Shown in pieces: positions 410 through 61,604 of a stretch of DNA of 64,000 nucleotides. How positions within the stretch are numbered: the stretch's first letter is position 1; every line of letters begins with the position of its first letter. The translations under genes were made by a program, and so were the position numbers. The notes below the pieces were generated by a model, which was not told where the DNA came from, searched no databases, and was given only the letters and a program-made list of their open reading frames with translations. Source of the DNA: Nannocystis sp. SCPEA4 (GTDB lineage Bacteria > Myxococcota_A > Polyangia > Nannocystales > Nannocystaceae); the NCBI RefSeq assembly GCF_026626685.1, contig NZ_JAPNJX010000001.1, positions 76,752 to 140,751 of the forward strand, in the 5' to 3' direction.

Positions 410-441
410 CAGGGCCGTGAGGACATGTCCTCACGGCCCTG
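410..441 (+). terminator. Perfect 32-bp palindrome cagggccgtgaggaCATGtcctcacggccctg immediately 3' of the acyl-CoA DH gene; probable bidirectional hairpin terminator / REP-like element
   Basis: Reverse complement is identical. Stem 14 bp around a CATG core, followed by ttcattc. Lies between convergent gene ends. Confidence 0.45.
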
Positions 442-577
442 TTCATTCGGGCATACAAGACCCCCCCTGCCGATCGAGCGACGCCCTCGTTCGAAGCGAC
501 CACTCCGCCTCACGACAAGCGGGGCCCGCCACACTCTTCTGGGGCGGCCTCGCGGCGGCGGAGTGGGACGCAGCGAG

Positions 578-1887
578 CAACCGTCAGGCGTGTCAAGGCA
601 TCTTCGTCCACGGCGTGTTGGACCGGACCATGGCGTTGAGGATGACAAGGAGCTTGCGCATGCAGGCCACGATAGCGACCTTGTCGGGTTTCCCGGAGGC
701 CCTCAGGTGCGCGTAGTACTCGGCGAGCTGCGAGTTGTAGGCGTGCCCGACGGCGGCGCGCGTCGTGGCGTACAGAGCCCGACGGATGTCATGCCGGCCG
801 CCTCGGATATGGCGTTCTCCGCGGTGCTTGCCCGAGTCACAGTTGAACGGTGCGACGCCGACAAGGGCGGCGATCGCCGTGCGGCTGAGCTTCCCGAGCT
901 CGGGAAGGCCAGCGAGAAGGGTCATCGAGAGCACACGACCTACGCCTGGAACGCTCTGGAGCAGCTTGTCGGCCTCGCGCCAGATCGGGCTGGCTTTGAT
1001 CGCTTTGCGGAGCTCCTTCTCGATGTCCTTGAGCTCCTGGTCGATCCACGCGACGTGGCGCTCGAGGCTCTGGCGCTCGCGCTTGTACAGTGCCGTTCGC
1101 AGCCGGTTGTTCTCGCTGATCTGGTTCTCTTGCAGCTGCTTGCGCCGACGAACGAGCGAGTCGATCTCCATCGTCTGCTCATCCTTGAGTGGCCGGGGCT
1201 CGGGCTTGAAGACCTCGGCGTACTCGGCGATCACGGCTGCGTCGATCTTGTCCGTCTTGGCGAGTCGGCCCTTGGCCTTGGCGAAGTCGCGGATCTGTCT
1301 CGCGTTCACCACCGCGACGGGGAGCCCAGCCGCGGCCAGCGCCGCTGCCACCGGGATCTCGTAGCCGCCTGTCGGTTCCATCACGATCAGCACCGGATCG
1401 AGCTGCTTCAGCCTGTCGATCAGGGCCGCGATAGCCGCCGGGTCATTGGCAATCTCAAACACCGGGCCTCGCGGTCCGAGGGCCACACAGAGGGTCTCCT
1501 TCGCAAGATCAATGCCGATGTACTGGTTCTTCGGGTCTTCTGGGGTCATGGCGATCCTTGCCGACGAATGTCCCGCGCCTCTCCCGCCGCCCTGCCTTGC
1601 AGGATTCGAGCTCGGTCTGACCGGCTCAGGCAACCGTTCGGGCTCTTGGAGAAGTCAACGCTTGGCGATCCTCGCTCTCTGGCGGGCTTGAGGCTCAGGG
1701 GCCCTACGATCTACCGAGCGCCCGGGAGCGAAGTCGTACCGCTTCTCAAGCCCACAAGCGGTTCGACAGCACACCAGAATTTCACTGGGAGAAAATCAAG
1801 GAGAGCGTCCGGCGATCCCTGCTCCCTGGCGGGCTCATGGCACCGGGGCCCCATCGATCTGCCGGACGCTCGGGGAGTTGATACAAG
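578..1887 (-). mobile_element. IS110-family insertion sequence (~1.31 kb), no obvious terminal IRs or target duplication
   Basis: Boundaries inferred from the uninterrupted repeat copy at 37100-37260. There is a single DEDD-type transposase ORF. The 335-bp non-coding arm is upstream of the transposase and the other arm is 15 bp, which is the typical IS110 asymmetry. Confidence 0.75.
593..1549 (-). CDS. IS110-family transposase (DEDD recombinase)
   Basis: N-terminal YIGIDLAKETLCVAL motif and C-terminal IS116/IS110/IS902 transposase-domain motifs (GVGRVLSMTLLAGLPELG, FNCDSGKHRGERHIRGGR). ATG at 1549. Confidence 0.85.
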   Translation of the reverse strand: MTPEDPKNQYIGIDLAKETLCVALGPRGPVFEIANDPAAIAALIDRLKQLDPVLIVMEPTGGYEIPVAAALAAAGLPVAVVNARQIRDFAKAKGRLAKTDKIDAAVIAEYAEVFKPEPRPLKDEQTMEIDSLVRRRKQLQENQISENNRLRTALYKRERQSLERHVAWIDQELKDIEKELRKAIKASPIWREADKLLQSVPGVGRVLSMTLLAGLPELGKLSRTAIAALVGVAPFNCDSGKHRGERHIRGGRHDIRRALYATTRAAVGHAYNSQLAEYYAHLRASGKPDKVAIVACMRKLLVILNAMVRSNTPWTKMP

Positions 1888-2158
1888 GGGCCCCATGCCT
1901 CACGCGCAGACGCGGGATCAATCTTCGGACATGCCCCATCGCCCTTCCGCGTCGAGCATGTGGCATGGCAGGTCTCGCGTCGCGAGGGACCCGCGCCGCC
2001 GCCGCGAGGCCGCCCCTCCCCGCTCCCCACGGCCCCGCGTCCTCGCGCACGCGATCCTCGACTCTCGCCTTCCCTCGCCGGCCTGGGCGACTCACCCGCA
2101 GAAAGCGACATGACCGCCAGGACATGTCCCGGCGGTCATGCTGTTGCGCCGCTGAACC

Positions 2159-3724
2159 TCAGGGCACCGCGGCCCACTCGCCGGTGGTGTCGGGGCACGC
2201 CGGCGTGAACACGGCCGTCTTCACCCACGCCTCGCCGGATTCGTCGAGCGTGTGGGCCGCGAGCGGGCTGCACACCTCGCCCTTGGCGTCGAAGTCGAGC
2301 GGCCCGGTGATGCCCGTGAGGTCGACGGACTTGCCGGTGGCGAACGCCGACAGCGCGGCGGGCACGAACATCTTCGGGCCCGTGCCGAAGTCGACCGGCA
2401 CGCCGGACTTGTCGGACAGCTTCTCCATCGCGTCGGCGACGCGCAGGCCGACGACGATGTCGCCGGACTTCACCGCGGCCATGCCGATCAGCGACGCCAT
2501 CGTCGCGTCGTAGGCGAGGCCGGCCTCGGGCGCCAGCGACGACTCGCCGAGGCGGGTGCGCAGCTTGGCGAGCTGCGGGGTGTCGAGGTCCGGGGTGATG
2601 GCGACGACGACGCCGGCGAGGTCCTTGTCCTTGAGCGCGGCGACCGCGGCCATCGCCCGCTGCGGCACGTAGATCTTCTGCGGCAGAGGGGCGCCGGTGG
2701 TCTTGTAGTACTTGATGATGTCGGCGACCTCGGCGCGGCCGAGCAGGACCAACATCTGCGGCATGTCGAAGCTCGTGAGCGCCGCGTCGAGCTTGGCCTT
2801 CGCGCCCTTGGTGGCGTCGTCGAGCCCGCGGTACGAGGCGATGAACTGGTTGCCGGGGACCTGGGGGATCTGGCTCGGACCGCCCGTCTCCTCGGTCGCC
2901 ACCGCGTTGTAGAGGCTGAGCCCGTACGCGTCCTCCGCCAGCAGCAGCACCGCGTTCGCGTCGGGGACGCCCATGAAGTCGGCGCCGATCCGGGCGCCGA
3001 GCGCCGGGCCCTGGTACTTGGCGCCGGCCATCGCCTGGAAGACCAGGTTGGCCGAGGTGTCGAGCTCGCTCATGTCGGCCGTGACCATCGGCCCCATCGT
3101 GAACGCGTTGACGCCGGGGGCGAACGTCACCTGGTCGACCACCGCCGTGAACTCGACGTCGTCGACCGGGCCGATGAGCACCGGGATCGCCAGCGTGTCG
3201 CCGAGGTGGCGGCCGGCCGACGTCGCCGACGCCACCTCGCTCTTGGTGTCGCAGACCACCAGCGCGATCTTGTCGCCGTTCGGCAGCTCGCCGGAGCCGT
3301 TGAACTCCTCGACCGCCGCCAGCACGCCCTTCTCCATCGCCTCGCCGAGCGCCGCGTCAGCGCCGGTCTTCGGCAGCATCACGCCGATGAAGGCGACGTC
3401 GTCGCTGACCTCGCCACCGGGGTAGATCGGCGCGCCGCACTCGTCGGTCTCGGTCGACGCACACTCGCGCGGCGCGCTCGAGGTGGCGCAGATGAACGCC
3501 TCGCCGAGGCCCGCGCACTGCGAGTTGGCGTCGCAGCCTTTCTCGCGGACCTGGCAGGTGTTGGCCGCGCAGTACATCGGCTTGTTGTCGTCGAAGAAGG
3601 CCGCGCAGTCGGCGTCCTCGTAGCACTCGGTGAAGTCGAGCGTCGCCGAGCACGCGCCCGCGATCACCCCGAGGACGCCGCAGACAGAGATCCGGGTCAG
3701 CATATGCGAGAAGACAGACGACAT
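2159..3724 (-). CDS. Periplasmic ligand-binding lipoprotein (type-1 PBP, Leu/Ile/Val-binding/ANF-receptor-like) with N-terminal Cys-rich module
   Basis: Lipobox VIAGAC, then a Cys-rich ~90 aa region, then a PBP1-like fold. ATG start with RBS. Confidence 0.65.
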   Translation of the reverse strand: MSSVFSHMLTRISVCGVLGVIAGACSATLDFTECYEDADCAAFFDDNKPMYCAANTCQVREKGCDANSQCAGLGEAFICATSSAPRECASTETDECGAPIYPGGEVSDDVAFIGVMLPKTGADAALGEAMEKGVLAAVEEFNGSGELPNGDKIALVVCDTKSEVASATSAGRHLGDTLAIPVLIGPVDDVEFTAVVDQVTFAPGVNAFTMGPMVTADMSELDTSANLVFQAMAGAKYQGPALGARIGADFMGVPDANAVLLLAEDAYGLSLYNAVATEETGGPSQIPQVPGNQFIASYRGLDDATKGAKAKLDAALTSFDMPQMLVLLGRAEVADIIKYYKTTGAPLPQKIYVPQRAMAAVAALKDKDLAGVVVAITPDLDTPQLAKLRTRLGESSLAPEAGLAYDATMASLIGMAAVKSGDIVVGLRVADAMEKLSDKSGVPVDFGTGPKMFVPAALSAFATGKSVDLTGITGPLDFDAKGEVCSPLAAHTLDESGEAWVKTAVFTPACPDTTGEWAAVP

Positions 3725-13251: not shown

Positions 13252-14823
13252 ATGACCACCAAGCCCGCTACCACCACGCCCGCCACCCCCGACAGCCAAT
13301 GGCGCCAGGGCAAGCCCGTGGAGGACCCCGAGAAGATGAAGCGCTGGGGCTTCATCACCGCCAAGCCGTCCGAGTACCTCATCCACGTGCGTCGGGGACG
13401 GATCCGTCGCGCCAGCACCGGCCAGGGCGCGAGCTGCTTCAAGTGGCCGTGGGACAGCGTGGCCGTCATCCCGACCACCATCAACCGCCTGCAGTTCACC
13501 GCCGACCAGGTCACGCTCGAGAAGGTCGGCGTGCAGATCACCGGGCTCGCCGTCTACCGGATCGCCGAGCCGGAGCTGACCTTCCGCATGCTCAACTTCT
13601 CCTACAGCGAGCGCGCGCAGGAGAAGCTCGGCGAGATCCTCACCGAGATGTTCGTCGGCGCCACCCGGCGCCTCGTCGCCAACCTGCGCGTCGAGGACGC
13701 CATGACCCGGCGCAAGGAGTCGATCGCGCGCGAGCTGATGGCGGAGCTCGTGCCGATCGTCGAGGGCCGCGGCCGCACCGACGACAGCACCGCCACCGGT
13801 TGGGGCGTGATCATCGACACCGTCGAGATCCAGAACGTGCAGATCCTGTCGGACACCGTGTTCCAGGACATGCAGGCCCGGTTCCGCGCCGAGCTGGCCC
13901 TGCGCGCGCGCATGGCCGAGATGGAGAGCGCCCGCGAGATCGCCACCCTCGAGGCGACCTCGTCGCGCCAGATCGAGGAGGCCAAGATCGCCAGCGAGAC
14001 CGCCACGCGCGAGCTCAAGGCCCAGGCCGAGAGCCGCACCATGCAGATCGAGCTGGCCGAGGCCGCCAAGCGCGACGAGCTCGAGGCGCGCGCCGCCGAG
14101 GAGCAGCGCGTGCGCGACCAGATGCGCCTGTTCGCCGAGCTCAAGGCCTCCACCGAGCTCGCCGAGGAGCGAGCCGCCCGCGAGCAGGCGCGGGCCCTCG
14201 CCGAGCTCAAGGCCGCCACCGAGCTCGCCGAGGAGCGAGGTGCGCGCGAGCAGGCGCGCCTGCTCGGCGAGCTGCGGGCCAAGACCCAGATCGAGCAGGA
14301 GAAGGCCGCCCAGGCCGAGGCCGTGCGGCTGGCCCAGCTCGCGCGCGAGCGCAAGTACGCCGAGGCCGAGCGTCAGCTGCTCGAGGTCAAGCACACCACG
14401 CAGCAGCGCGAGGCCGAGCTCGCCGCCCAGCTGGCGATGAACCGCAGCAAGGCCAGCACCGAGCTCAAGGACCTCGAGAGCGCCGCGGCCGCGCGGCTCA
14501 AGGAGCGCGAGCTGCAGCTCGAGCGGCTCGCCGGCGAGGTCCGGGCCGCCGTGGCCCGGGCCGCTCGCGAGGTCGACAACCTCGTCTCCGACGACCGGAT
14601 CCGCATGGCCCTGGTCGAGACCGGCCTGCCCGCGATCGCCGGCGCGTTCGCGCAGAAGTTCGGCGAGGTCAAGATCACCTCGTTCGGCGAGGGCGCCGAC
14701 CCCTCGGCCATGGTCGCCCGCGGGATCGGCGAGGTCCTCGCGCTCGCCCGCAAGGTCGGCACCGACCTGCTCGCCACGCCGGCCGCGCCTGTCCCGTCGG
14801 ACAGCAGCCAGCCGGGCCAGTGA
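13252..14823 (+). CDS. Flotillin-like SPFH/Band-7 protein with long EA-rich coiled coil
   Basis: SPFH domain motifs, then ~200 aa of AEL/REQ repeats typical of FloT/YqiK. Confidence 0.85.
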   Translation: MTTKPATTTPATPDSQWRQGKPVEDPEKMKRWGFITAKPSEYLIHVRRGRIRRASTGQGASCFKWPWDSVAVIPTTINRLQFTADQVTLEKVGVQITGLAVYRIAEPELTFRMLNFSYSERAQEKLGEILTEMFVGATRRLVANLRVEDAMTRRKESIARELMAELVPIVEGRGRTDDSTATGWGVIIDTVEIQNVQILSDTVFQDMQARFRAELALRARMAEMESAREIATLEATSSRQIEEAKIASETATRELKAQAESRTMQIELAEAAKRDELEARAAEEQRVRDQMRLFAELKASTELAEERAAREQARALAELKAATELAEERGAREQARLLGELRAKTQIEQEKAAQAEAVRLAQLARERKYAEAERQLLEVKHTTQQREAELAAQLAMNRSKASTELKDLESAAAARLKERELQLERLAGEVRAAVARAAREVDNLVSDDRIRMALVETGLPAIAGAFAQKFGEVKITSFGEGADPSAMVARGIGEVLALARKVGTDLLATPAAPVPSDSSQPGQ

Positions 14824-15106
14824 ACGCGCCCCTCACATGTCCCAGGGGACAGCCAGCGCCGCAGGGCGGCGGCGCTCCACGCCCTGTCTCTTCGGACATA
14901 CCGGCGCCGGACCCATCGTTACGCGCATCGCCTGTCCTCCCGGACATGTCCTTGCGCACCCGTACGGGCGGCCCCTGCGCGGCTCCTCGCGGCTCGCCCG
15001 GCTCCTTCGTCGCCGCGCTGGCGACCACCCCCCTGTCCTCGGCCCCCCCGCGGCGCGACCGGTTGACCGGCACCGTGAGCAGTCCACGTTTTGCAGCACC
15101 ACGACG

Positions 15107-15727
15107 ATGCTGCCTGCCTCGACCTTGCCCGCCACGCCCCGCTCGACCTGTCTCTTGCGACAGGCTGTCGTCGTGCTGTCGATGGCCGCCTGCGACCCCT
15201 CGTCGGGCGACGGCGACGCCGACAGCGGCGACGACACCGGCGGGGCCGTCGCCTGTCCGCTCAACGACGCGTGGGAGCCGAACGACGACCCCGACGATCC
15301 GACCGACATGGCCTGGGACGCCGCCGACACGTGGTCGGCCTGGCACGAGGTCGACGACGCCTACCTGTGCCCTGGCGAGGACGACTGGTACCGCATCGAC
15401 CTCGCCGGCCTCGGCTACAGCGTGCACTACCTTTACGTCCGCGCGCTGGTGAAGGACGCCGGACTGTGCGGCGCCGCCTGCGGGGAGCCGGTGCTTGCGG
15501 CCGGCCCCGAGAACGCGATGACGATCGAGGTCTACCGGGCCGACACCCACGAGGCGCTGATCGCCCAGACCGCCGACGACGGCGTGCTCGCGCTCGCCGG
15601 CTCCGGCGACGACTACGCCGACGGCCTGCTGCTGCGCGTCCACAGCGACACACCGACGGCCGAGTATCCGTACCGGCTGAGCGTCTCCGTGCGCAACTAC
15701 GAAGGCGAGGACGAGTGTGAGTGCTGA
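15107..15727 (+). CDS. Secreted lipoprotein with PPC (pre-peptidase C-terminal)-like domain
   Basis: Signal plus lipobox VVLSMAAC, an acidic linker, and a DDWYRIDL motif. Confidence 0.5.
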   Translation: MLPASTLPATPRSTCLLRQAVVVLSMAACDPSSGDGDADSGDDTGGAVACPLNDAWEPNDDPDDPTDMAWDAADTWSAWHEVDDAYLCPGEDDWYRIDLAGLGYSVHYLYVRALVKDAGLCGAACGEPVLAAGPENAMTIEVYRADTHEALIAQTADDGVLALAGSGDDYADGLLLRVHSDTPTAEYPYRLSVSVRNYEGEDECEC

Positions 15728-16745: not shown

Positions 16746-18116
16746 TCACTCATCGGACTCTTCGGACATGTCCGATTCGCCATCCGGTCCGAGCTCGAGG
16801 TCGACCAGGATCGGGTTGTGATCCGACACCAGCTTGCCCTCGGCGACCGGCCGCTCGATGACCTGCGGCGCGCGCGGGCGCAGCCCCTTGCCGGCGAACC
16901 AGTCGACGCGCAGCGGCACCCGCCCGCCCCACGGCGCCAGCCGGCGCTCGAGGTACGTCCACATCACCCGGCGCATCGCCTTCGGCATGTAGTCGAGCGC
17001 CTTGCGGAAGATCTCGGGGTCGTAGATGTCGTAGTAGATGGTCCCGCGGGTGAAGTCGTTGAAGCCGTCGATCTCGAACCCGCCCTCGCGCATCGCCGCG
17101 AACACCGCCCGCTCGAAGTGCTCCTCCGGCTTCATGTACTGGGCCGCCATGCCCTCGATGCCGAAGCGCGTCAGCTTGTAGAAGAAGTTGTAGGCCAGGC
17201 CGCGGCCGCTGCTCAGGTCGTACGTGTTGGTGTTGAGGTCGCCGCCGAGGAGCATGCGTTCGCCGCCGAACTCGCGCAGGCGGGCCACGATCTCGCGGAT
17301 GTGGCGGGCCCGGTCGCGCGGGCCGGCGAACGGGTCGAGGTGGACCAGCGCGACCGTCAGCGGCCCGTCGGGCAGCAGCAGCTCGCACAGCAGCGCGCGC
17401 TTGTTGCCGATCCGCTTCTCCGTCGCGTGGAACTTGTCGCGCCGCTCGTGCAGCTCGACCGCCTCGAAGCGCAGCACCGGGAAGCGGGTCAGCAGGGCGC
17501 AGCCGTGCATCGCCTTGGTGTTCGGCACCCCGTGGCCACGTTCGCCGCGGTCGCCCTCGACCAGCACGATGTGATAGTTGGCGAACACGTAGCCCATGCC
17601 GAGCGCGTGGGCCAGCTCCTTGGGCACGTTGCGGTTGCCCGAGCGACCCATGCCGATGTCGACCTCGGTCAGCAGCAGCAGGTCGGCCGCGGTCAGCTCG
17701 GGGTCGGAGGTCAGGAGCGTGTGCAGGCCCTCGAAGCGCTTCCCGCGCTCCACGTTCCAGGCGACCGCGCGGACGATCCCCGGCCGCCGTGGCGCCAGCG
17801 AGTGGCCGAGCGTCGGCTCCAGATCCCACTCGAAGCCGCGGAGGACCCGCTCGAGCTGCGGGCGGATCGTGCGGAACACCGGGTCTCGCTCCAGGCGCCG
17901 GCGCGTGCGGATCCGGGCGATGTGGGCCAGCGCGTCGGTGAAGTCGTGGTCGAGCTGCGAGCGGAGCGGGAGGGGACCTGGCTCGGAGACCAGGTTAGGA
18001 TAGGCGAAGAGATTCGTCGGCACGCGTCTCCCCGGGTCGGACAGATCGGTACCAGATCGCCGGGGCGCTGTCCTCGTCTGCTCCCGCGCGCCCCGGGCAA
18101 TTTCGATCTCGCTCAC
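16746..18116 (-). CDS. Endonuclease/exonuclease/phosphatase (EEP) family protein
   Basis: EEP motifs including the C-terminal SDHNPILVDL. GTG start. Confidence 0.75.
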   Translation of the reverse strand: MSEIEIARGAREQTRTAPRRSGTDLSDPGRRVPTNLFAYPNLVSEPGPLPLRSQLDHDFTDALAHIARIRTRRRLERDPVFRTIRPQLERVLRGFEWDLEPTLGHSLAPRRPGIVRAVAWNVERGKRFEGLHTLLTSDPELTAADLLLLTEVDIGMGRSGNRNVPKELAHALGMGYVFANYHIVLVEGDRGERGHGVPNTKAMHGCALLTRFPVLRFEAVELHERRDKFHATEKRIGNKRALLCELLLPDGPLTVALVHLDPFAGPRDRARHIREIVARLREFGGERMLLGGDLNTNTYDLSSGRGLAYNFFYKLTRFGIEGMAAQYMKPEEHFERAVFAAMREGGFEIDGFNDFTRGTIYYDIYDPEIFRKALDYMPKAMRRVMWTYLERRLAPWGGRVPLRVDWFAGKGLRPRAPQVIERPVAEGKLVSDHNPILVDLELGPDGESDMSEESDE

Positions 18117-24936: not shown

Positions 24937-24938
24937 CA

Positions 24939-24984
24939 CGTGTTCTTCAAGACATGTTCAAAAGAGCATGTCTTGAAGAACACG
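24939..24984 (+). terminator. Perfect 18-bp inverted repeat cgtgttcttcaagacatg/catgtcttgaagaacacg with 10-nt loop between the LOX gene and the next gene; hairpin terminator/attenuator or operator
   Basis: Arms are exact reverse complements. The element is AT-richer than its context and contains the recurring AAGACATG motif. Confidence 0.5.
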
Positions 24985-26806: not shown

Positions 26807-26861
26807 CGCCTGCGACCCGGGAGGCGGCCGAGGACCTCGTGCCGCCGTCGCTCGGCCTGCA

Positions 26862-26978
26862 CTCTCGGACATGTCCTCGACAACATGCCATGCCCTGGCC
26901 TCGCGCCCGCGCCCGCGCCCGCACGACACGAGCCCGCGACTCGCCTGCACTCCCGGACATGTCCTCGACAGCATGTCC
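26862..26978. repeat. Two direct copies of ctc(t/c)cggacatgtcctcgaca(a/g)catg in the 226-bp spacer before mqnD
   Basis: The copies start at ~26866 and ~26949 and each contains the GGACATGTCC palindrome. Confidence 0.45.
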
Positions 26979-27032
26979 CGCCGCGCCTCTCGCCCTCGGG
27001 TCTGCGCGGCAGCCCCGGCGCCCGGCATCGCC

Positions 27033-29477: not shown

Positions 29478-29505
29478 CCTTACGGACAGGAACCGGAGGA
29501 CACCC

Positions 29506-37560: not shown

Positions 37561-37564
37561 TCCG

Positions 37565-44622: not shown

Positions 44623-44857
44623 CGGCGTCGTCCCCCGGGCGCACACTGTGGTCCGGGGCTGCCCCGCGCGAGCCAGGACCTCGCCCGCGTCACCGCGGAC
44701 CTGCATCACGACGGGGGTCGTCGACCCACACGCAGATCTGCGCGTGCCCCGCGACCCGCGTGACAGCCGAACACCGCCTGTCTCTTCGGACATCTGCGAA
44801 GCGTGCAGCTGCACCTATGCTCGCTCCAGCTCGCGCTCTGCGAGCGCCGAGCACCGC

Positions 44858-46152: not shown

Positions 46153-46434
46153 CAGCGCGCTTCCCTGGTGGCCCGGCGTCGTCGTCGGGGGCGGGAGTGC
46201 GATTGGCGGCACCATCGGCGCGGGCTGTCCCAGGGACGGTGGCCCGGCGAGCGGCCGATTGCAAGGCGAAACTCCGGGCGACCGGTCGAGTGTGGCGAAT
46301 CGGTGGACCCTCGCGTCGCGCCTGCTCAGGCACGCCACGATGTCGTCGCTGGCCGGCAGCCGCGGCTGGGCGACGCACGCGTCGGGCCTCCGTACCATCT
46401 GTCTCTTCGGACACCTCTGTGCCATCCTGCCGCC

Positions 46435-46875
46435 ATGAGCCGGATCCGGATCGGTCACGACACGTGGACATTGGACCGCGCCTCGCTCGCGGCCTATCAC
46501 TGCCACGCTCCCGAGGCCGACTGGAACCTCGCCCTCGATCACGCCGGGCAGATGCTGTGGCTGGCCGGCACCGTGACGCCGGGTCCACGCGCGCCCGCCG
46601 AGCTCGTGGGCGCCGAGGTCACCGTCGACCTGCGCTCCCTCGACGAGGTCGTCGGCGCCCTGCTCGGCCGCGCCGTCACCCTCTACCCCGGCGGCCAGGA
46701 CATCTGCGCCCTCGGCTTCACGCTCGCCTCCTCGCCCGCGGGCGTGCGCCTCGCCGTCACCGTCACCTGCGACTGGGACCGCGCGCTCGCGACCTTCCCC
46801 CACGACGAGCCCGTCGTCCTCGAGCTCGACATCGACGCCGGAGTCGAGGCGCTCCATCCCGGTAATCTGCCTTGA
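46435..46875 (+). CDS. Hypothetical protein (146 aa)
   Basis: GC3-biased ORF with ATG start. A CTGTCTCTTCGGACA motif lies 25 bp upstream. Confidence 0.4.
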   Translation: MSRIRIGHDTWTLDRASLAAYHCHAPEADWNLALDHAGQMLWLAGTVTPGPRAPAELVGAEVTVDLRSLDEVVGALLGRAVTLYPGGQDICALGFTLASSPAGVRLAVTVTCDWDRALATFPHDEPVVLELDIDAGVEALHPGNLP

Positions 46876-47042
46876 AGAACATGTCTTGATGGACATACCG
46901 ATCCGCCGGGCCGGCGACACTGTCCCTGAGGTTTGCCGGACCCCCCCGGGGTCTCGCGTCGTCGCGTGCGCGTGCGCGCCGCGTTCTGCCGGATTGACGC
47001 AGCCGCTCCGTGCCCCGAAGATCCCGCGCGGAGGGGCGGACG

Positions 47043-50785: not shown

Positions 50786-50806
50786 GCGCGAGGGCAACGG
50801 CCCCGC

Positions 50807-55285: not shown

Positions 55286-56737
55286 TCAGCCCTCGGGCAG
55301 CACCACGAACGCGAACTCGCCGGGCGTCGCGGTCCCGAGCGTGTCGACGGACAGGAAGTAGGTGCCCGGCTGCAGCGGCCCCTCGAGCTCGCGGTCGCCC
55401 CGTTTCACGCACGTGCCGGCGTCGGTCAGCGTCATCAAGTGGAGGTCGACGTCGACGTTGCCCTGGTCGAACACCAGCGCCCGGATCGTCGTCGGCGCGT
55501 CGATCGTCAGCTCGTACACGAATTCGGGCCCGTCCTCGCCCATCGCCATGCACGCGCCCTGGTAGGCGTCGATCGCGTCGCTGGGGCTGTCGGCGGTGCT
55601 GCGCATGTCGGCGAACGGCAGGCCCGGGATCACGATCGGCTCCTCGAGCGTGCCGGCGCCCAGCAGCGTCGGCGCGGTCGCGTCGGGCGGCGGACCGCCG
55701 TCCACGATCACCGTCTTGCCGCGGGCGAGCGCCTCGAGCGTGACCAGGTTGCGGCGGTTGTAGCCGCTGGTGATGCCGCTGAAGCCGAACGCGCACGGAG
55801 CCGGCGTCACCATGTCGGCCGCGAGGGCGACGCTGAGGTCGATGCCGTCGGCCGCGAGCCCGGCGTTGGGCAGGCCCGCGAGCGCGAGGTTGAGGTCGAT
55901 CAGCGGGATCTTGCGGCCCTGCGCGAGGGCGCGGATGAACGCGTTGTAGCGCGGCACGTAGACATCGATCCCGGCCGGCATCGTGCGCGCAGGGATGGTC
56001 GACAGGATCGGCACCGTGCCGCCGGCGATCAGCGCGTCGACCACGGCGACGAGGTTGTCGGCGAACGTGAACACGCCGTCGGGCGGCGGCGCCTCGAGCT
56101 CGGTGGTGCCGAGCAGCACGACCGCGAAGCGCGGGTTGATCTCGGTCACCTCGCTTACCAGCGGCGACGGGGCGCCGGCCAGGATCTCGGCCCCGGTCCA
56201 GCCCGGCATCGCCGCCAGGCTGACGCGACTGAACGACGTCGCCCCCATGCCGGCCGCGGTGGCGTTGAAGAAGTCGACCGTGGGCTGCAGCGCCGGCGGC
56301 AGCTCGGCGATCTGCATGGCGTCGGCCAGGCAGTTCATGAAATTGCTGCTGGCGGTGTGCGTCCCGCCGACCTTGGCGAACACGCCGTCGGTCTTGACCC
56401 CCTTGGCCGCGATCGCGGTCATCGCCGCCGCCACGTCGGCCGTGATCGGCGAGTGCACCTCGGTGAACGGGTAGTACTCGCCGAGCACCGTCGGCTCGCC
56501 GGTCGTCGTCGTCTCGGTCTCACCTGTCTCCGAGGTCAGGGTGTCGCCCGTCGTCGTCGTCGTCGTCGTCTCGGTCGTGTCGGTCGCCGGCTCCGGCCCG
56601 GTGGTCGGGTCGGTCGACGTCGGCATCGCCGTCGCCGAGGTCGTGGCGAGCGTCCCGCTGGTCTCGCCGTCGAGCGGCGCTCCCGCTGCGCACCCGACCG
56701 CCAGCGCGGCCATCGGTCCGATAATCCATCGCGTCAT
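55286..56737 (-). CDS. Lipoprotein with Thr-rich linker (possible SGNH/hydrolase-like and PPC-like C-terminal domains)
   Basis: Lipobox LAVGCAAG and a TTETTTTT linker. Confidence 0.55.
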   Translation of the reverse strand: MTRWIIGPMAALAVGCAAGAPLDGETSGTLATTSATAMPTSTDPTTGPEPATDTTETTTTTTTGDTLTSETGETETTTTGEPTVLGEYYPFTEVHSPITADVAAAMTAIAAKGVKTDGVFAKVGGTHTASSNFMNCLADAMQIAELPPALQPTVDFFNATAAGMGATSFSRVSLAAMPGWTGAEILAGAPSPLVSEVTEINPRFAVVLLGTTELEAPPPDGVFTFADNLVAVVDALIAGGTVPILSTIPARTMPAGIDVYVPRYNAFIRALAQGRKIPLIDLNLALAGLPNAGLAADGIDLSVALAADMVTPAPCAFGFSGITSGYNRRNLVTLEALARGKTVIVDGGPPPDATAPTLLGAGTLEEPIVIPGLPFADMRSTADSPSDAIDAYQGACMAMGEDGPEFVYELTIDAPTTIRALVFDQGNVDVDLHLMTLTDAGTCVKRGDRELEGPLQPGTYFLSVDTLGTATPGEFAFVVLPEG

Positions 56738-56914
56738 GGCCCGGCAGGGTACACCATGTCGGCCGCCCCACCGCAGGGCCCGAGAGCGCGCCGGTCACGG
56801 CCCGGGGCGCCCGGCGAACGCGGGCCCGGCCCGTCGCACGCCGATCCGCGCGCGCCGGCCTTCGCGCGGCGCAGCCCGCTTCCGGGGCGTCCGCGCGCGT
56901 CTTCGCAACCGCGG

Positions 56915-57145
56915 CACAACATGTCCTCGCGGACATCTGCTCCCCGGATCGGGGCCGCACGGACGCCGCGCATGCAGGCGGACGTGCACCCGCTATCTCA
57001 GCGCCCGAGACGCGACAATTGTCGCGCCTGCCTGGCCCGAGAGACATGTCCGGATCGACCGCCGATCGTCCATGTCCCATCAGACATGTCCATGGCAGAC
57101 CCCGCGACCGCGCCACGGACATGACCATGAAGACATGTCCATGAA
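56915..57145. promoter_or_regulatory. Array of at least seven GACATGTCC-type sites in the promoter region of the 55286-56737 lipoprotein gene
   Basis: Sites in order: caacatgtcctcg, cggacatctgc, agacatgtccgga, tccatgtccca, agacatgtccatgg, cggacatgaccatg, agacatgtccatg. Confidence 0.45.
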
Positions 57146-57168: not shown

Positions 57169-58569
57169 TCAATCGCCGCGGCCGGCGCGGCCGAGGAAGA
57201 AGCCGGCGAGCCCGCCGGTCACGCCCCACGACGTCCCGCGCGGGATCTCCGGGACCGCCGTCTCGAGCCGCTGCCAGTTGACGGCCGCGAACACCCGCAG
57301 GTGCTGCAGGAGCACCCAGTTGACGCCCGCGGACGCGGCCGTGATGCCGTTGCCGGCCAGGTCGCGGGCGCCGACGCGGAAGCGCTCGAAGCGGGCCGAC
57401 AGCTCGACCGCGCTGTCGCGGACGCGCCGGCTCGCCAGCCGCGGCAGCAGCGTCGCCGGGTCCTTCTCCTGCCCCGTCACCACCGCCCCGAGCTGCGCGT
57501 AGCCGCCGGCGCCGATGAACTGCGGCAGCGGGTCGCCGGGCGTGAACGGGTCGCCGTCGGTGTCGCGCTCGCGCGAGTCGTACGTGTAGAAGAACTCGCC
57601 GCGGGCCGACAGGAAGCGCCAGAACAGCCCGCCGCCGGCCGTGAAGCGCCGCGACGCCCCGCTGCTCGGCAGCCCGTGGAAGAAGTCGAAGCCGAACGCG
57701 GTCGTCACCGTCGGCGTGAAGCCGTTGGTCTTGTGGTACGCGAACACCGACGCCACCAGGATCAGCTTCGGCCCGCGCTGCAGCCCCGCCAGCGGGTTGA
57801 GCTGGACCTTGCCGGCGAACGCGATCTTCGTGTTGTTGGCCTCGCGGTTCTGGCCGATGCCGGAGAACACCGCCGCCGTCACCTCGGCCCAGCGCCAGAA
57901 GTCGTACGCCACCTCGAGCCCGACCTGCCGGCCCGGCGTGGCCGCCAGCAGCGACAGCGGCGCCCGCGGCAGCTCGTCGACCAAATCGGGCGCGTTGAAG
58001 CGGAGCCCGAACGGCGCCTTGAACTGGCCCGCGCGCAGCCGCAGCCGCGGCGCCGCCGCCCACGCCACGAACGCGTCGAACAGCTGCGGCCCCTTGGCCT
58101 GCGCCGCCTCGATCGTCACGAACGCCGTCACCGGCCCGACGCTCACCCCGCCGCCGATCCGCGCCCCGGCCAGGCTGATGTTGCTGTAGCCCTCGCGCGG
58201 CGCCGAGTACCAGGTCGCGTCGGTGCGGATCCACCCGTACGGGAAGAACTCGAACCGCTCGCGCAGCGGCTTCTTCGCGGCTGGAAGTTCGGGCATGCTC
58301 TTCGGGACAGGCGTCTCACCGCCGGCCGCAGCGGCCCCTGCAGGCCCTGAAGTGGATGTGTCCGTTCGGACATGCTCCTTCGGACCTCCGCCCTGGGCGT
58401 CGCCCGGCGCCGGCACAGAGATGTCCGTTTGGACAGGTTCGCCTGTACCTGCCTCACCGGGTGTGTGGCCAGCGCTCTGCCCCGGGCGCTCGGGCACCGG
58501 CACGCTGGTCACCTCCTCGGCCGGCGCCGTCGCCAGCGCTGCCCCCATGATGATCGTCGTCGACAGCAC
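57169..58569 (-). CDS. Outer-membrane beta-barrel porin-like protein
   Basis: Signal peptide, low-complexity N-terminal region, and alternating beta-strand pattern ending in an aromatic residue. GTG start; alternative ATG at 58548. Confidence 0.45.
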   Translation of the reverse strand: MLSTTIIMGAALATAPAEEVTSVPVPERPGQSAGHTPGEAGTGEPVQTDISVPAPGDAQGGGPKEHVRTDTSTSGPAGAAAAGGETPVPKSMPELPAAKKPLRERFEFFPYGWIRTDATWYSAPREGYSNISLAGARIGGGVSVGPVTAFVTIEAAQAKGPQLFDAFVAWAAAPRLRLRAGQFKAPFGLRFNAPDLVDELPRAPLSLLAATPGRQVGLEVAYDFWRWAEVTAAVFSGIGQNREANNTKIAFAGKVQLNPLAGLQRGPKLILVASVFAYHKTNGFTPTVTTAFGFDFFHGLPSSGASRRFTAGGGLFWRFLSARGEFFYTYDSRERDTDGDPFTPGDPLPQFIGAGGYAQLGAVVTGQEKDPATLLPRLASRRVRDSAVELSARFERFRVGARDLAGNGITAASAGVNWVLLQHLRVFAAVNWQRLETAVPEIPRGTSWGVTGGLAGFFLGRAGRGD

Positions 58570-59577: not shown

Positions 59578-59628
59578 GACTGCTCCAAAGGTCAGGTTGT
59601 CGTCGTCGGTTGTTGCCTGTCCCGCAGG

Positions 59629-60738
59629 TCAGGCGGCCGCGAGCTCGGCGACGCGGTCGCCGCAGCCGCGCACGTCGTAGCCGAGCGACGACAGCTCGCG
59701 GCGGAACGCCGCCGAGGTCATCGCGTCGAGGAAGCGCAGCACCCGGGGGTCGGCCAGCAGCGCCCGCGGGATCGCCAGGTCGTAGCGCTCCTCGGCCAGC
59801 GGCACGAACTCGAGCCCGAACGCGAGCGCCGCGTCGCGCGTGGCCACCCCGACCTCGCCGGCCCCGCTGGCGATCGCCTGCGCGACCTCGAGGTGCCCGC
59901 TCGCCCGCACCGGCGCCGCGTCGGCCAGCGTCGCCGGCAGACCGGCGCGCTGCAGCTCGCGCTCGAGCAGCCGCCGCGCGCCCGAGCCGGCCTCGCGCGC
60001 GACCAGCCGCAGCCCGCGGCGCCCGAGGTCGCCGGCGCCGCGGATCTTCCGCGGATTGCCCGGCGCGAGCAAAAGCCCCGCCTCCCATCGCGCCAGCGTG
60101 ATCAGCACCAGCGCCGCGCCGGTGTGCTTGCGGACGTCGGGCACGTTGGCCTCGCCGGTGCGCCCGTCGACCAGGTGCACTCCGGCCACGTGCGTGTGCT
60201 CGGCCGCCAGCGCCGCCAGAGCCTGCGTGCTCGAGCGCGGCAGCCACACGCAGCGACCGGCCCCGGCGCGCGTGCTCAGCCGATCGGCGAGCACCCCGAG
60301 GGCCGCAGCGCAGCCCATCACCACCAGGTTGCCCTGCGCCTCGGCCCGCGGCCGCACCAGCTCGACCTCGACCCGACCGCGCCGCCCGGGCGCCCGCGCC
60401 ACGATCGCGTCGGCCGCCAGCCGCATCGCCTCGCCGCTCAGCGGATACGCCACCCAGCGCCCGCCGACGTGGGCCAGAGCCACCCGCCCCGCCGACACCG
60501 CCGACGCCGGCTCGGCCTCGATCCGCAGCTCGCCGGTCGGGACCGCGAACAGATCCTCGACGCGACAGTCGAGCGCCCGCGCCAGCCGCAGCGCCACGTC
60601 GACCGCCGGCGTCGCCCGCCCGGCCTCGATCGCCCCCACGCTCTGGCGCGACAGGTTCGCCGCCTCCGCCAGCTCGACCTGGGACATCCCGCAGGCCTCT
60701 CGCGCCGCTCGCACCCGGTTGGGCTCGTTTTCGGTCAT
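59629..60738 (-). CDS. XRE-family HTH transcriptional regulator fused to a periplasmic-binding-protein-like (molybdate/ModE-type) domain
   Basis: HTH_XRE motif CGMSQVELAEAANLSRQSVGAIEAG, then a PBP-like fold. ATG at 60738; a TTG at 60777 is possible. Confidence 0.65.
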   Translation of the reverse strand: MTENEPNRVRAAREACGMSQVELAEAANLSRQSVGAIEAGRATPAVDVALRLARALDCRVEDLFAVPTGELRIEAEPASAVSAGRVALAHVGGRWVAYPLSGEAMRLAADAIVARAPGRRGRVEVELVRPRAEAQGNLVVMGCAAALGVLADRLSTRAGAGRCVWLPRSSTQALAALAAEHTHVAGVHLVDGRTGEANVPDVRKHTGAALVLITLARWEAGLLLAPGNPRKIRGAGDLGRRGLRLVAREAGSGARRLLERELQRAGLPATLADAAPVRASGHLEVAQAIASGAGEVGVATRDAALAFGLEFVPLAEERYDLAIPRALLADPRVLRFLDAMTSAAFRRELSSLGYDVRGCGDRVAELAAA

Positions 60739-60857
60739 GACGCGTACTCTTTCCTCGATGGAAAGCACACTTGTCAAGTGACTTCGCCGATCCCCTCCCC
60801 TCGCCCGTTCAGCGGCGCGGGCTGCCCCGACCCGGCGATGCGCGTAGGCTCGCGCGC

Positions 60858-61604
60858 ATGTCCGACGCCGAGTTCCTCACCGCCGAGTGGCGCGACCTCG
60901 TCCTGCTGAACTTCGCCGTCGACCCGGTCGTGCTCGCCCCGCACGTCCCGCCCGGCACCGAGCTCGATCTGTTCGACGGCGTCGCCTGCGTCAGCCTGGT
61001 CGGCTTCATGTTCCTGCGCACGCGGCTGCTCGGCTGCCCGGTCCCGTGGCACCGCGACTTCGAGGAGCTCAACCTGCGCTTCTACGTCCGCCGGCCCGGG
61101 CGCCCCGACGAGCCGCACGTCGGCGCCGACGGCTACAAGCGCGGGGTCGCCTTCTTCAAGGAGATCGTCCCGCGCGCCGCGGTCGCCATGGTCGCGCGCC
61201 GGCTCTACGGCGAGCGCTACGAGGCATGGCCGATGAAACATGTCCGAACAGTCACCTCCGAGGGCGCCGGCGAGGTCGCCTACGGGGCCCGCGTCGGCGG
61301 GCGCTGGCACGAGCTCGGCCTCGCCTTCCGCGGCGAGCCGGCCGCGCCTGCCCCCGGCAGCGAGGCCGAATTCATCGCCGAGCACTACTGGGGCTACGTC
61401 GCCGGCCCCGGCGGTCCGACCACCGAGTACCGCGTCGAGCACCCGCCCTGGCGGGTCTGGACCGGCGTCGATCCGCTGCTGCGCCTCGACGCCGCGGCCC
61501 TCTACGGCCCGGCCCTGGCCCCCGCGCTCGCCGGCCCGCCGCGCTCGGCGTTCCTCGCCGAGGGCTCCGCGGTCACCGTCTACCGCGGTCGCCGCCTGAC
61601 CTGA
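60858..61604 (+). CDS. DUF2071 (YqjF-like) protein
   Basis: WRDLVLLNFAVDPVVLAPHVPPGTELDLFDGVACVSLVGFMF...FEELNLRFYV matches the DUF2071 N-terminal consensus. Confidence 0.55.
   Translation: MSDAEFLTAEWRDLVLLNFAVDPVVLAPHVPPGTELDLFDGVACVSLVGFMFLRTRLLGCPVPWHRDFEELNLRFYVRRPGRPDEPHVGADGYKRGVAFFKEIVPRAAVAMVARRLYGERYEAWPMKHVRTVTSEGAGEVAYGARVGGRWHELGLAFRGEPAAPAPGSEAEFIAEHYWGYVAGPGGPTTEYRVEHPPWRVWTGVDPLLRLDAAALYGPALAPALAGPPRSAFLAEGSAVTVYRGRRLT

Follow-up and report, generated by a model that had tools for sequence, protein, structure and literature searches.

REP/BIME elements lie outside genes, at their 3' sides and between convergent genes, and avoid divergent promoters. A topological or nucleoid anchoring role has reportedly been proposed for them as well as for HIP1, which is also said to have been linked recently to transformation. 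Known uptake sequences are asymmetric 9-12-mers occurring about once per kb, with inverted pairs at variable spacing. Here we analysed a stretch of 64,000 nucleotides (the window) from Nannocystis sp. SCPEA4, a strain near N. pusilla, in which a short motif recurs that resembles REP in where its sites fall. We tentatively read it, with a probability of about 45%, as a lineage-specific, iterated palindrome of the REP/HIP1 kind that is bound by a putative dimeric protein and marks the 3' flanks of genes.

Exact copies of the decamer GGACATGTCC lie at 421, 2120, 14942, 16764, 26000, 26867 and 26955, that is, seven times in the window against 0.07 expected from dinucleotide shuffles, and 21 sites against 1.9 are found when up to one mismatch is allowed. 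The original prediction that the motif is far from chance is therefore well founded, and the site coordinates given with it were right to 1-2 nt. Indeed, the top enriched multi-copy 8-mer in the window is GGACATGT (24 copies versus 2.4 under an order-3 Markov model), and 23 of the 38 GGACATG heptamers are intergenic, though only ~18% of the window is. Three exact copies of the 15-mer CTGTCTCTTCGGACA were recovered as described (14884, 44778 and 46399), and the array at 57042-57140, the overlap with a start codon at 32352 and the in-frame copies encoding ..DMS.. are all real. By contrast, the 20-mer put forward as a consensus has zero occurrences in the window; its 14 exact matches in the genome collection all fall in Nannocystis or Nannocystaceae.

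The decamer is not the basic unit, because (A/C)TGTC is conserved at -10..-6 on both of its sides (37 exact decamers, pooled flanks) and because TGTCC and GGACA pair exclusively at one spacing. At this spacing, N4, the window has 8 pairs, 14 Nannocystis loci together have 40, and the related locus L015 has 2; apart from one N1 pair, none of the remaining spacings between 0 and 17 yielded a pair in the window and loci. The underlying unit is a 16-bp inverted repeat, M-TGTCC-N4-GGACA-K, i.e. (A/C)TGTCC-N4-GGACA(T/G), with a strict 4-bp spacer. Eight exact units occur in the window against 0.07 expected, and 23 against 1.9 with at most one mismatch. They stand singly, abut head-to-tail at a 14-bp period, or lie inside longer terminator-like palindromes (Table 1). 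GGACATGTCC is the junction of two abutting units, and head-to-tail abutting therefore places it at every seam. Of the palindromes noticed earlier, that at 410-441 (34 bp, 409-442) and that at 24939-24984 are real, the latter with arms of 21 nt. The fixed pair of half-sites, TGTCC-N4-GGACA, fits the dimeric DNA-binding protein envisaged at the outset. An ECF-sigma promoter, also suggested then, was rejected: the element is a strict palindrome that lacks a -35/-10 arrangement.

Table 1. Motif-bearing features of the window (positions in the window; strand in brackets; "decamer" is the junction motif described in the text).
Position	Feature	Gene context	Remarks
409..442	Perfect 34-bp palindrome, 17-nt arms, centred on decamer 421-430	Convergent gap; 23 nt past the stop of the + gene ending at 386	Terminator-like; - strand then reads CTTTTT; -32.6/-33.2 kcal/mol, z -7.5/-7.0
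2109..2140	Two abutting units, TGACCgccaGGACA and TGTCCcggcGGTCA, joined at decamer 2120-2129	19 nt past the stop of gene 2159..3703 (-)	Outer half-sites GACA (2107-2110) and TG (2139-2140) start a third period; palindrome with 21-nt arms, 95% complementarity; -31.5 kcal/mol, z -6.0
14790..14951	Four-unit array, spacings 48, 47 and 48 nt		No coding periodicity in 14824 to ~15050
14790-14803	Array unit 1, exact	Last codons of gene 13252..14823	
14838-14851	Array unit 2, exact		
14885-14898	Array unit 3, variant TGTCT-cttc-GGACA		The 15-mer
14933-14946	Array unit 4, exact		Adjoins TGTCC, giving decamer 14942-14951
16762..16775	TCGGACATGTCCGA	Last codons (..GESDMSEESDE*) of exo/endonuclease-phosphatase gene 16746..18023 (-); convergent gene meeting point	C-terminal tail of relative L016 one residue longer, unrelated in sequence
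24939..24984	Hairpin, 21-nt arms 4 nt apart, 95% complementarity; arms hold degenerate decamers AGACATGTTC / GAGCATGTCT	3 nt past the stop of a lysyl-oxidase-like gene, 9 nt ahead of the next start codon	-35.9 kcal/mol, z -10.4
25457..25475	CGACATGTCC and exact unit TGTCCcccgGGACA	Within gene 24993..26117	Exactly conserved in L015
25986..26018	Three half-site pairs around decamer 26000-26009	Within gene 24993..26117 (..HEDMSIK..)	In L015, arms kept, 3/4 spacer bases differ
26855..26982	88-bp duplication, two copies; exact decamers 26867-26876 and 26955-26964	Convergent gap	In each copy a degenerate decamer follows 14 bp on; in the L015 ortholog the other member is the near-perfect one
29066..29079	Exact unit	HAD-hydrolase gene	GAT GTC CTG AAG GAC ACC = DVLKDT
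29475..29488	One-mismatch unit TGACCttacGGACA	28-nt gap before the next gene	TGA is the stop of gene 28860..29477
44779..44792	TGTCTcttcGGACA, core of the 15-mer	~70 nt ahead of 44709, the best-scoring start for an alpha/beta-hydrolase gene (-)	
46400..46413	TGTCTcttcGGACA, core of the 15-mer	22-36 nt upstream of ATG 46435	One mismatch; only unit found in a divergent gap
46882..46895	TGTCTtgatGGACA	7 nt past the stop of gene 46435..46875	
56922..56935	Exact unit	~210 nt upstream of GDSL-lipase-like gene 55286..56713 (-)	In a ~110-nt block conserved in four relatives
57042..57140	Decamer-like sites (five or six) that partly keep a 14-bp register	29-127 nt past the stop of a porin-like gene (57169.. 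on -)	Segment differs in each of four relatives, yet all four have units
58359..58435	Exact units at 58359-58372 and at 58422-58435	Within the porin-like gene, in its N-terminal region (variable, low complexity)	Full ORF taken as 57169..58569 (-) because homologues have 410-473 aa
59618..59631	One-mismatch unit TGTCCcgcaGGTCA	Gene 59629..60687 (-)	TCA is its stop codon

The pooled units comprise 50 exact and 96 one-mismatch copies, against 0.1 and 4.3 expected, and their variation follows sequence rather than base pairing. Spacers are free (25 different loops among 73 units) and arms hardly vary, while each flanking base changes independently of the other, the pairs A..T, C..G, A..G and C..T occurring 17, 16, 16 and 15 times. 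Neither these counts nor those of double mutants revealed base-pair covariation in the units: compensatory doubles number 6 against 3.9 expected, whereas non-compensatory paired doubles number 17 against 5.8. These features fit a dimer that reads double-stranded DNA sequence-specifically rather than a generic hairpin.

These data bear directly on whether the motif works as RNA, its sites forming 3' UTR stem-loops that end transcription or shield the mRNA 3' end. Sites do lie near stop codons, three composite palindromes are very stable (-31 to -36 kcal/mol), the one at 442-409 has a U-tract, and a scan of 20 kb for strong canonical terminators turned up just one, which is among the three; canonical terminators are otherwise near shuffle level (10 vs 6.9). 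However, the folding energies of single units (-5 to -7 kcal/mol) are no better than those of shuffles, most units have no U-tract on their 3' side, Rfam gave no match for the element, and what is conserved in the stem is its sequence and not its structure, with the flanking bases unpaired. The same units also occur within genes and on either strand, and we regard an RNA-level element as very unlikely.

Confident coding sequence contains 8 exact units, ~35-fold more than the 0.23 obtained when synonymous codons are shuffled (40 shuffles, none with more than 1). They use two reading frames and encode unrelated peptides, which agrees with the earlier proposal of a DNA-level signal rather than a peptide motif. 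The HAD-hydrolase site illustrates how they arise. Its peptide is identical in relative L018 and differs in the last residue in L016 (DVLKDK); both relatives are one mismatch off the unit because both use GAC for the first Asp, and a GAC-to-GAT change yields the exact unit. Units are thus shown to be created in place within genes via synonymous codon choice. In orthologous alignments between relatives, arms are 88% identical compared with 67% for spacers and 71% for flanks, although the figure for arms may be inflated, the aligner anchoring on repeated pentamers and the comparisons not being independent.

We then come to placement, for which gene calls in the window and in L001-L014 were GC3-based. 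Exact sites reach 0.13 per kb in coding sequence and 1.8 in tandem and convergent gaps alike, while divergent gaps have 0. These classes are imperfect, since at least one array counted as "intergenic" (L002/L004/L013) probably represents a proline-rich coding linker. Density is thus ~14-fold lower in genes than in gaps. Tandem or convergent gaps, 24.5 kb in all, contain 45 exact sites, and 6.9 kb of divergent, promoter-only gaps contain none. With just 4% of the sequence, the stop zone holds 15 of 80 clusters (p=7e-7), whereas the start zone holds 3 of 80 and is not enriched. The preferred places are the first tens of bases 3' of stop codons, convergent and tandem gaps, and tolerant (disordered) coding tails; clusters also lie inside genes of unrelated function. 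The motif-positive DNA covered comes to ~250 kb, in which 14 loci had been picked via the motif itself. By extrapolation, exact sites number about one in every 3.7 kb, which would make some 3000 in a genome. Stop-codon proximity could merely mark where insertions or mutations are tolerated.

The initial idea was an operator, with a dimeric global transcription factor sitting on promoter-located units to govern a large regulon. An inverted repeat with fixed spacing, free spacer and constrained arms is exactly operator-like, abutting tandem sites would suggest cooperative binding, and the 15-mers at 44778 and 46399 precede gene starts (Table 1). The unit at 56922, inside its conserved upstream block, looks like the sole site resembling a conserved regulatory site. 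Nevertheless, the expected enrichment upstream of start codons did not emerge from the positional-bias check, and of the "promoter/intergenic" placement only the intergenic half stands, divergent gaps being devoid of exact sites. Six clusters sit in convergent gaps, which have no promoter; neighbouring genes share no function; genes themselves carry the codon-level excess described above; most intergenic sites are not position-conserved between 93-94% relatives; and the extrapolated copy number lies far beyond known regulons. A promoter operator is therefore quite unlikely.

Species that share 93-94% identity in the neighbouring proteins show fast turnover of the intergenic copies, and the segments that hold units are hypervariable and indel-rich between close relatives. 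This behaviour recalls REP/REPIN- or MITE-like hairpins that a transposase, RAYT-type (Y1) or another, copies and that pile up where they are harmless; the placement, the clusters and arrays, and the patchy distribution among lineages recall them too. In N. pusilla (L019), a 37-nt two-unit segment with duplicated ATTGA flanks lies right at the porin stop and is absent from the window, which hints at mobility. On the other hand, spacers are essentially random and the arms alone are common to all, so the units were not copied from a master element. A lone unit does not form a stable hairpin, and units arise in conserved genes by single synonymous changes. Decay would be even along a dead copy, yet the arms are kept more than spacer and flanks. 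The only transposase found among the window genes and 79 neighbouring genes is that of an IS110-family element (578-1885), and the notion that IS110 targets the motif fails, since the element is inserted in another repeat, a long hairpin of ~170 nt (37144-37310), at a point ~40 nt from a degenerate decamer and outside the motif. A REP/MITE-like family thus remains a fair analogy for placement but not for copy-and-paste spread, which we consider unlikely.

The motif family was found only in Nannocystis and close relatives, which belong to the suborder Nannocystineae and not, as first assumed, to Sorangiineae. Among Nannocystaceae lineages it is present in some, decayed in one and absent in others; the decayed sister lineage (L016/L018) has 15 one-mismatch units and 0 exact ones. 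Such genus restriction would also suit a self-DNA tag likened to DNA-uptake sequences (DUS/USS) or to HIP1, in which unit-bearing DNA is favoured by a receptor or by a protein of recombination or repair and molecular drive spreads units where they are tolerated. The >100-fold enrichment, synonymous sites in genes included, and the tolerance-limited spread into disordered tails, 3' flanks and inverted arrangements doubling as terminators are in line with this idea. Unlike in uptake sequences, however, the recognised entity here would be the pair itself at strict N4; moreover, genes are far sparser in sites than gaps, and ordinary selection also explains arm conservation. We judge a self-DNA tag to be distinctly improbable.

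Returning to the protein-bound palindrome, we propose that each unit may be read on double-stranded DNA by a homodimer, with one GGACAK hexamer per subunit. The putative binder would be a DNA-binding protein that is abundant and lineage-specific; scanning all genes of the window and the 79 neighbouring genes with Pfam gave no recurrent candidate. Selection or molecular drive on the arms would keep the sites, and promoters may exclude them because bound protein or palindromes would be harmful there. Judging from position, the units would have a collective role at gene 3' boundaries rather than serve as operators of a regulon, and this role may lie in protein- or hairpin-assisted termination or insulation, or in providing topological or nucleoid anchoring points.

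The CATG-centred decamer GGACATGTCC, on which the original prediction was built, indeed recurs in the window: seven exact sites were found against 0.07 expected from dinucleotide shuffles of the 64-kb sequence, and 21 sites with no more than one mismatch against 1.9. The top over-represented multi-copy 8-mer of the window is GGACATGT, with 24 copies versus 2.4 under an order-3 Markov model. The longer 15-mer CTGTCTCTTCGGACA, every one of the proposed palindromes, the array and the overlap with a start codon were likewise recovered (see table). However, the decamer is not the basic unit. Pooling the sequences around 37 exact decamers, taken from the window and from related loci, showed (A/C)TGTC to be conserved at positions -10 to -6 on either side. 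Tallying pentamer pairs at every spacing further revealed that TGTCC-Nd-GGACA is nearly confined to d=4 (8 cases in the window, 40 in the 14 Nannocystis loci chosen through the motif, L001-L014, and 2 in L015, a locus of a close relative), that GGACA-Nd-TGTCC peaks at d=0, which is the decamer itself, and at d=14, and that direct pentamer repeats peak at d=9, a period of 14 bp. The preceding base is A or C and the following base T or G in 64 of 73 units. The pentamer spacing and this flanking-base preference therefore define the element as a 16-bp inverted repeat, M-TGTCC-N4-GGACA-K, and the decamer as the seam where two units abut.

Counted as TGTCC-N4-GGACA, the eight exact units of the window compare with 0.07 expected, and the 23 with at most one mismatch with 1.9; over-representation exceeds 100-fold. 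The 15-mer is a single unit, C-TGTCT-CTTC-GGACA; its variant TGTCT-CTTC-GGACA is somewhat favoured (three window copies), and spacers are diverse overall. The 20-mer CTGTCTCTTCGGACATGTCC had been offered as the consensus, but its 14 genome matches are roughly the number that random sampling by the frequencies of units, spacers and variants would produce. We also considered a CRISPR array for the series of four 14-nt repeats beginning at 14790. CRISPR arrays have 23-47-nt repeats, unique spacers and cas genes, which do not match this series, and no cas genes occur among the window genes.

Coordinates of motif sites, repeats and associated features in the window
Feature	Position	Remark
Exact decamer GGACATGTCC	421, 2120, 14942, 16764, 26000, 26867, 26955	exact match
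15-mer CTGTCTCTTCGGACA	14884, 44778, 46399	exact match
Palindromes	409-442	perfect
	2109-2140; 24939-24984	each 95% complementary
Motif array	57042-57140
Start-codon overlap	32352
Genes opening with cATGTCC	32352, 48341, 60858
Units overlapping or closely following stops	409-442, 2109-2140, 14790, 16764, 24939, 29475, 46882, 57131, 59618
Series of 14-nt repeats	14790-14946	4 copies
Conserved block	56860-56990	~110 nt; contains unit 56922
Palindrome GACAATTGTC	57008-57029
Two hypothetical genes	15173-16742	absent in L016
Lysyl-oxidase-like three-gene block	23101-26806	absent in L016
Motif clusters at edges of the L016-absent blocks	14790-14951 and 16764; 26855-26982
Hydrolase gene to MacB/FtsX-like gene	~42600-53600	~11 kb; absent in N. 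pusilla L019
IS110-family element	578-1885	~1.3 kb; transposase ORF 593..1654 (-)
~250-bp repeat, split copy	503-577, 1886-2061	flanks of the IS110 element
~250-bp repeat, intact copy	37106-37354	96-97% identity
~170-nt hairpin repeat	37144-37310
	541-577 and 1886-2016
	36591-36804	inverted, 79% identical
Non-coding tandem-repeat block	36235-37564	1.3 kb
Tandem repeats within this block	36254-36599	42 nt x 8.2
	36871-37135	60 nt x 4.5
	37313-37505	57 nt x 3.4
In-gene tandem repeat	14094-14291	66 nt x 3; hypothetical gene 13252..14823
In-gene 15/30-nt repeats	41670-41812	LNG-type; ADYC-domain gene 41605..42585

To what extent the units act as sequence or as structure can be read from their variants. 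In ~183 kb of motif-positive DNA, exact units number 50 against 0.1 expected and one-mismatch units 96 against 4.3. Double mutants that preserve pairing are unenriched (6 versus 3.9 expected), and those that break it at paired positions are, if anything, more enriched (17 versus 5.8). Within the arms, G2 and C4 tolerate change least, and changes at position 3 as well as C-to-T at position 5 are tolerated; the spacer takes 25 different 4-bp sequences among the 73 units. Since the four combinations of flank bases are equally frequent (17, 16, 16 and 15), the flanks are unpaired. The folding energy of lone units, -5 to -7 kcal/mol, is in the range of shuffled sequences. A generic RNA or single-stranded DNA hairpin was rejected on this lack of covariation, and the rival view that the family is purely an RNA-level hairpin is very unlikely on the same ground. 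Rfam returned nothing at the gathering threshold, and a known RNA family was dropped from consideration. What the variants show is instead the signature of duplex DNA being recognized through a pair of hexameric half-sites at constant spacing, and hence of a dimeric protein. Judging from sequence, we give a probability of roughly 45% to the reading that the units form a lineage-specific family of iterated palindromic sites that are putatively protein-binding. This family resembles REP/BIME in location and dynamics, HIP1 in abundance and in-gene enrichment, and operators in architecture.

The sites are distributed unevenly among sequence classes. With coding and gap classes taken from our own GC3-based gene calls, on which the densities depend, exact sites occur at 0.13 per kb in coding DNA (18 in 143 kb) and at 1.8 per kb in both tandem (40 in 21.7 kb) and convergent gaps (5 in 2.8 kb), so that non-divergent gaps are ~14 times as dense as genes. 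Divergent gaps, the promoter-only intergenic DNA, hold none in 6.9 kb (0 per kb), against ~12 expected at the density of the other gaps (45 in 24.5 kb). The long "intergenic" arrays of L002, L004 and L013 probably encode a proline-rich linker within one long ORF, and part of the tandem-gap sequence is therefore coding. The stop zone (-15 to +45), 4% of the sequence, is touched by 15 of the 80 exact-site clusters (p=7e-7); the equivalent start zone is touched by 3 of 80, a chance number. Loci that were not picked via the motif carry about one exact site per 3.7 kb, and neighbouring genes have no common function.

This distribution bears directly on the promoter operator that had been proposed. 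No exact site falls in divergent gaps, clusters gather at stops and are unenriched at starts, and the unit at 56922 is the only intergenic one conserved in four relatives, all of which speaks against the proposal. The start-codon overlap is part of a wider case, in which cATGTCC opens three genes, but start-codon context as an explanation was reduced to a minor by-product, with no overall enrichment at starts. Nor does an ECF-sigma promoter fit: such promoters have a -35 box (GGAAC-like) and a -10 box (CGTC-like) that are asymmetric, separated by 16-17 nt and facing the gene, whereas the element is a symmetric 5-N4-5 palindrome without orientation. Operators bound by dimers, such as the MetJ met-boxes and the PadR-type ATGT-N8-ACAT operators, are tandem palindromes at few promoters. 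Like them, the Nannocystis units are adjoining short palindromes with fixed half-sites and a free spacer, each of which a dimer could bind, and ATGTCC-N4-GGACAT matches the PadR pattern if the flanks are A and T. Unlike in them, the flank is A or C equally often, the sites would number thousands by extrapolation, and promoter-only DNA is avoided. The units also resemble the SOS box CTGT-N8-ACAG, the CRP/FNR 5-4-5 sites, the TGTCY half-sites of gamma-delta resolvase and, through GGACATGTCC, the p53 half-site; copy number and location speak against those that are regulator-type. A set of operators for a global regulator would account for the constrained half-sites at fixed spacing, the free spacer and the conserved site at 56922, but its location, copy number, in-gene copies and little positional conservation make it improbable.

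Folding energies of -31 to -36 kcal/mol (z -6 to -10) were obtained for three composite palindromes centred on decamers. Of these, 442-409 on the minus strand is a stem-loop with a U-tract behind it; it is the sole strong terminator of canonical type within the first 20 kb, where terminator-like matches are otherwise at shuffle level (10 versus 6.9). By intrinsic-terminator criteria 2140-2109 is weak, and single units and most arrays do not qualify. Near one of the motif clusters, clear coding periodicity is absent from 14824 to ~15050, after which comes a short GC3 stretch in the frame of ATG 14946, and then the frame of gene 15173..15727 sets in. The segment 14824-15173 may represent a frameshift, the leader of a lipoprotein-like gene (..LSMAAC..) or a start that was mis-assembled.

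The units also occur inside genes more often than codon usage predicts. In 106 kb, confident coding DNA holds 8 exact units against 0.23 after synonymous-codon shuffling within genes, where none of the 40 shuffles gave more than 1. They lie in two reading frames and encode unrelated peptides, for example LSxRT or xVxxD; the 20-mer often translates within ORFs as ..DMSEET... A peptide motif (MSEET or DMS) was nevertheless rejected, as the rare GAA and ACA codons are identical across unrelated genes, the two frames give unrelated peptides and synonymous shuffles destroy the units. The HAD-hydrolase gene offers a particular case. Its peptide DVLKDT is the same in L018, a locus of a more distant relative, and becomes DVLKDK in L016, with the last residue alone changed; the rarer Asp codon GAT of the window completes an exact unit, and GAC in both L016 and L018 leaves it one mismatch off. 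From the codon shuffles, the frames and this case, it follows that the element is not a peptide motif, and some copies at least arise in place by point mutation. Other units lie in disordered coding tails or linkers, including the variable N-terminal region of the porin-like protein. The C-terminus GESDMSEESDE* of a phosphatase-family gene also carries one, and the L016 tail is similar in length and unrelated in sequence. Two in-gene tandem repeats are separate from the motif: one, AEEQRxRxQ..AELKA-like, is coiled-coil-like, and the other is of LNG type (see table).

The closest conceptual precedent for the motif is HIP1 (GCGATCGC) of cyanobacteria, which is over-represented 15- to 300-fold, for which peptide, RNA and gene-regulation roles were not found and for which a chromosome-level function was proposed (PMC5861425); a full-text search of the literature found no description of the present motif. 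HIP1 has also been tied to the methylases DmtA and DmtC (10.64898/2026.06.24.733823). Like HIP1, the Nannocystis element is lineage-specific, hyper-abundant and present in genes and gaps beyond codon usage; HIP1 is maintained by selection, as the units may be. Unlike HIP1, a continuous 8-mer with a fairly even spread, it is split (5/6-N4-5/6), placed after stops and organized in arrays with a 14-bp period.

To follow individual sites through evolution, units were defined on one genome and their positions scored in the others. Most intergenic units are unalignable between the window and its relatives at 93-94% identity, yet every genome has units in those same gaps. Where the gap following the porin gene was compared among four genomes, each of them has its own arrangement of units. 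At orthologous positions, arms are 88% identical, spacers 67% and flanks 71% (p ~1e-9 to 1e-14), in comparisons that are non-independent and in which the aligner may anchor on the arms. Unit 56922 lies further on from the porin gap, within a conserved block, and its arms are identical in all four genomes, with a varying spacer. This block and the palindrome GACAATTGTC that follows it lie upstream of a GDSL-lipase-like gene and are kept in four Nannocystis relatives; they could represent a small RNA, or a genuine promoter or other regulatory DNA. Several larger segments of the window are absent from relatives, and motif clusters sit at the edges of those absent in L016 (see table).

Such hypervariability recalls REP/BIME elements, which are short palindromes present in hundreds to thousands of copies, clustered and hypervariable between relatives. 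They follow genes or lie in the gaps of convergent or co-transcribed pairs, and are avoided between divergent promoters; binding by gyrase, IHF and Pol I and action on mRNA 3' ends and topology have been proposed. REPs are imperfect palindromes of 20-40 nt with a conserved stem and loop, which form stable hairpins and are mobilised as copies by RAYTs. Like REP/BIME, the Nannocystis unit is extragenic at 3' ends, clustered, hypervariable and missing from divergent gaps, although 18 exact sites are in genes. Unlike a REP, it has 16 bp and a free 4-bp spacer, is unstable alone as a hairpin and also arises in genes, and its copies share the arms only, with 25 spacers in 73 units. Of the REP/MITE hairpin family that had been suggested, the extragenic 3' location thus stands; a stable hairpin per unit and copies with a shared stem and loop do not. 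A single hint of insertion comes from N. pusilla (L019), where a 37-nt two-unit segment at the porin stop has a duplicated ATTGA on either side and the window lacks the segment. That the family is a REP/MITE-type mobile element would suit this case, the location and the hypervariability, but it is unlikely given that spacers are free, units originate in place, decay is uneven and hairpins are weak. Neither a RAYT (Y1 transposase) nor a candidate partner gene emerged when every window gene and 79 genes close to arrays in L001-L014 were scanned against Pfam; among the window, selected neighbours and these 79 genes, no DNA-binding family recurs near arrays beyond orthologous triplets, and the sole transposase is that of IS110.

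The IS110-family element, with Pfam domains DEDD_Tnp_IS110 and Transposase_20, was suggested as one that may target the motif. Its junctions (GCAGCGAG/caaccgtc... and ...gatacaa/GGGGCCCC, at 577/578 and 1885/1886) lie instead in a separate ~250-bp repeat, which it splits, and the closest decamer-like site is ~40 nt off. Within the intact copy of this repeat, a ~170-nt segment forms one very long hairpin (-124 kcal/mol, z -6.6) with 27-bp outer arms and GGACATGCCC near its apex. The hairpin repeat has three copies in the window and none in 25 related loci; hit by the IS110 element, it looks like a MITE/REPIN-type element. Two of its copies lie in a non-coding block of tandem repeats between the genes for enoyl-CoA hydratase and acyl-carrier protein, which abut or overlap in L016, L018, L019 and L022.

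The motif is restricted to one lineage. When 185,579 species were searched with one genome each, the 20-mer gave 14 exact matches against ~1 expected by chance, all in Nannocystis/Nannocystaceae: five in N. punicea, three in N. bainbridge and the rest in N. pusilla, N. radixulma, strain RBIL2 and MAGs. The window, too, belongs to Nannocystis: its porin-like protein is 93% identical to one of N. pusilla, and the surrounding 21 kb are syntenic. Among the relatives' loci, exact sites are present in L015 (94% marker-protein identity to the window), L019 (N. pusilla, 93%) and L022 (66%). There are none in L016 and L018 (81-82% for the marker protein MqnD), which have 15 one-mismatch units against <1 expected, nor in L020, L021 and L023 (Enhygromyxa salina; 76%, 68% and 58%). 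The one-mismatch units of L016 and L018 are mostly at conserved coding positions common to both loci and look like relics left after loss of the agent that maintained the motif. In summary, N. pusilla, N. punicea, N. bainbridge and N. radixulma carry the motif, one sister lineage retains it in decayed form, and Enhygromyxa and two other Nannocystaceae lineages lack it; this patchy pattern suggests that the maintaining agent was gained and lost among lineages.

A further comparison is with the uptake signals DUS (Neisseria) and USS (Pasteurellaceae), which have an asymmetric 9-12-nt core in either orientation, about one per kb, and inverted pairs with variable spacing. As with these signals, the Nannocystis element is a genus-specific word in genes and gaps, its inverted pairs just downstream of genes may double as terminators, and the word is variant or decayed in relatives. 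It differs in being a strict N4 inverted pair, with about one exact copy per 3.7 kb. An uptake-sequence-like molecular drive would accommodate the tolerance-limited spread and the decayed sister lineage, but asymmetry and a much higher density mark the known uptake signals, and we hold this explanation to be rather improbable too.

Under the favoured reading of protein-bound palindromic sites, a candidate dimeric DNA-binding protein would read the units, and selection or drive on the arms would keep them. Sites are excluded from promoter-only DNA and accumulate in the 3' flanks of genes, in which adjoining copies build terminator-like palindromes. A role at 3' boundaries, suggested by position alone, is the weakest step. 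We also entertain a more specific model, which is somewhat unlikely: a dedicated putative DNA-binding protein and its 16-bp word would be gained and lost together, and the word would mark 3' boundaries or tag self DNA. It may then provide a code for protein-dependent termination, insulation or a topological barrier, or serve uptake, recombination or repair.

For annotation, the motif should not be taken as a regulon operator in promoter prediction, and its arrays flag hypervariable, indel-prone segments. The element is distinguished by its strictly spaced, split two-hexamer architecture, its 14-bp abutting arrays and its strong 3'-flank bias. If the favoured reading holds, extrapolation would give each 12-13-Mb Nannocystis genome a few thousand copies of a palindrome that is read by a protein, sits at gene ends and is maintained, at synonymous sites too, by selection or drive. 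The element would then be a new, split-site example of the poorly understood hyper-abundant words (REP, HIP1 and DUS), in a phylum for which the literature searched describes no such word, and its patchy lineage distribution would give a direct handle on the partner protein via phylogenetic profiling.
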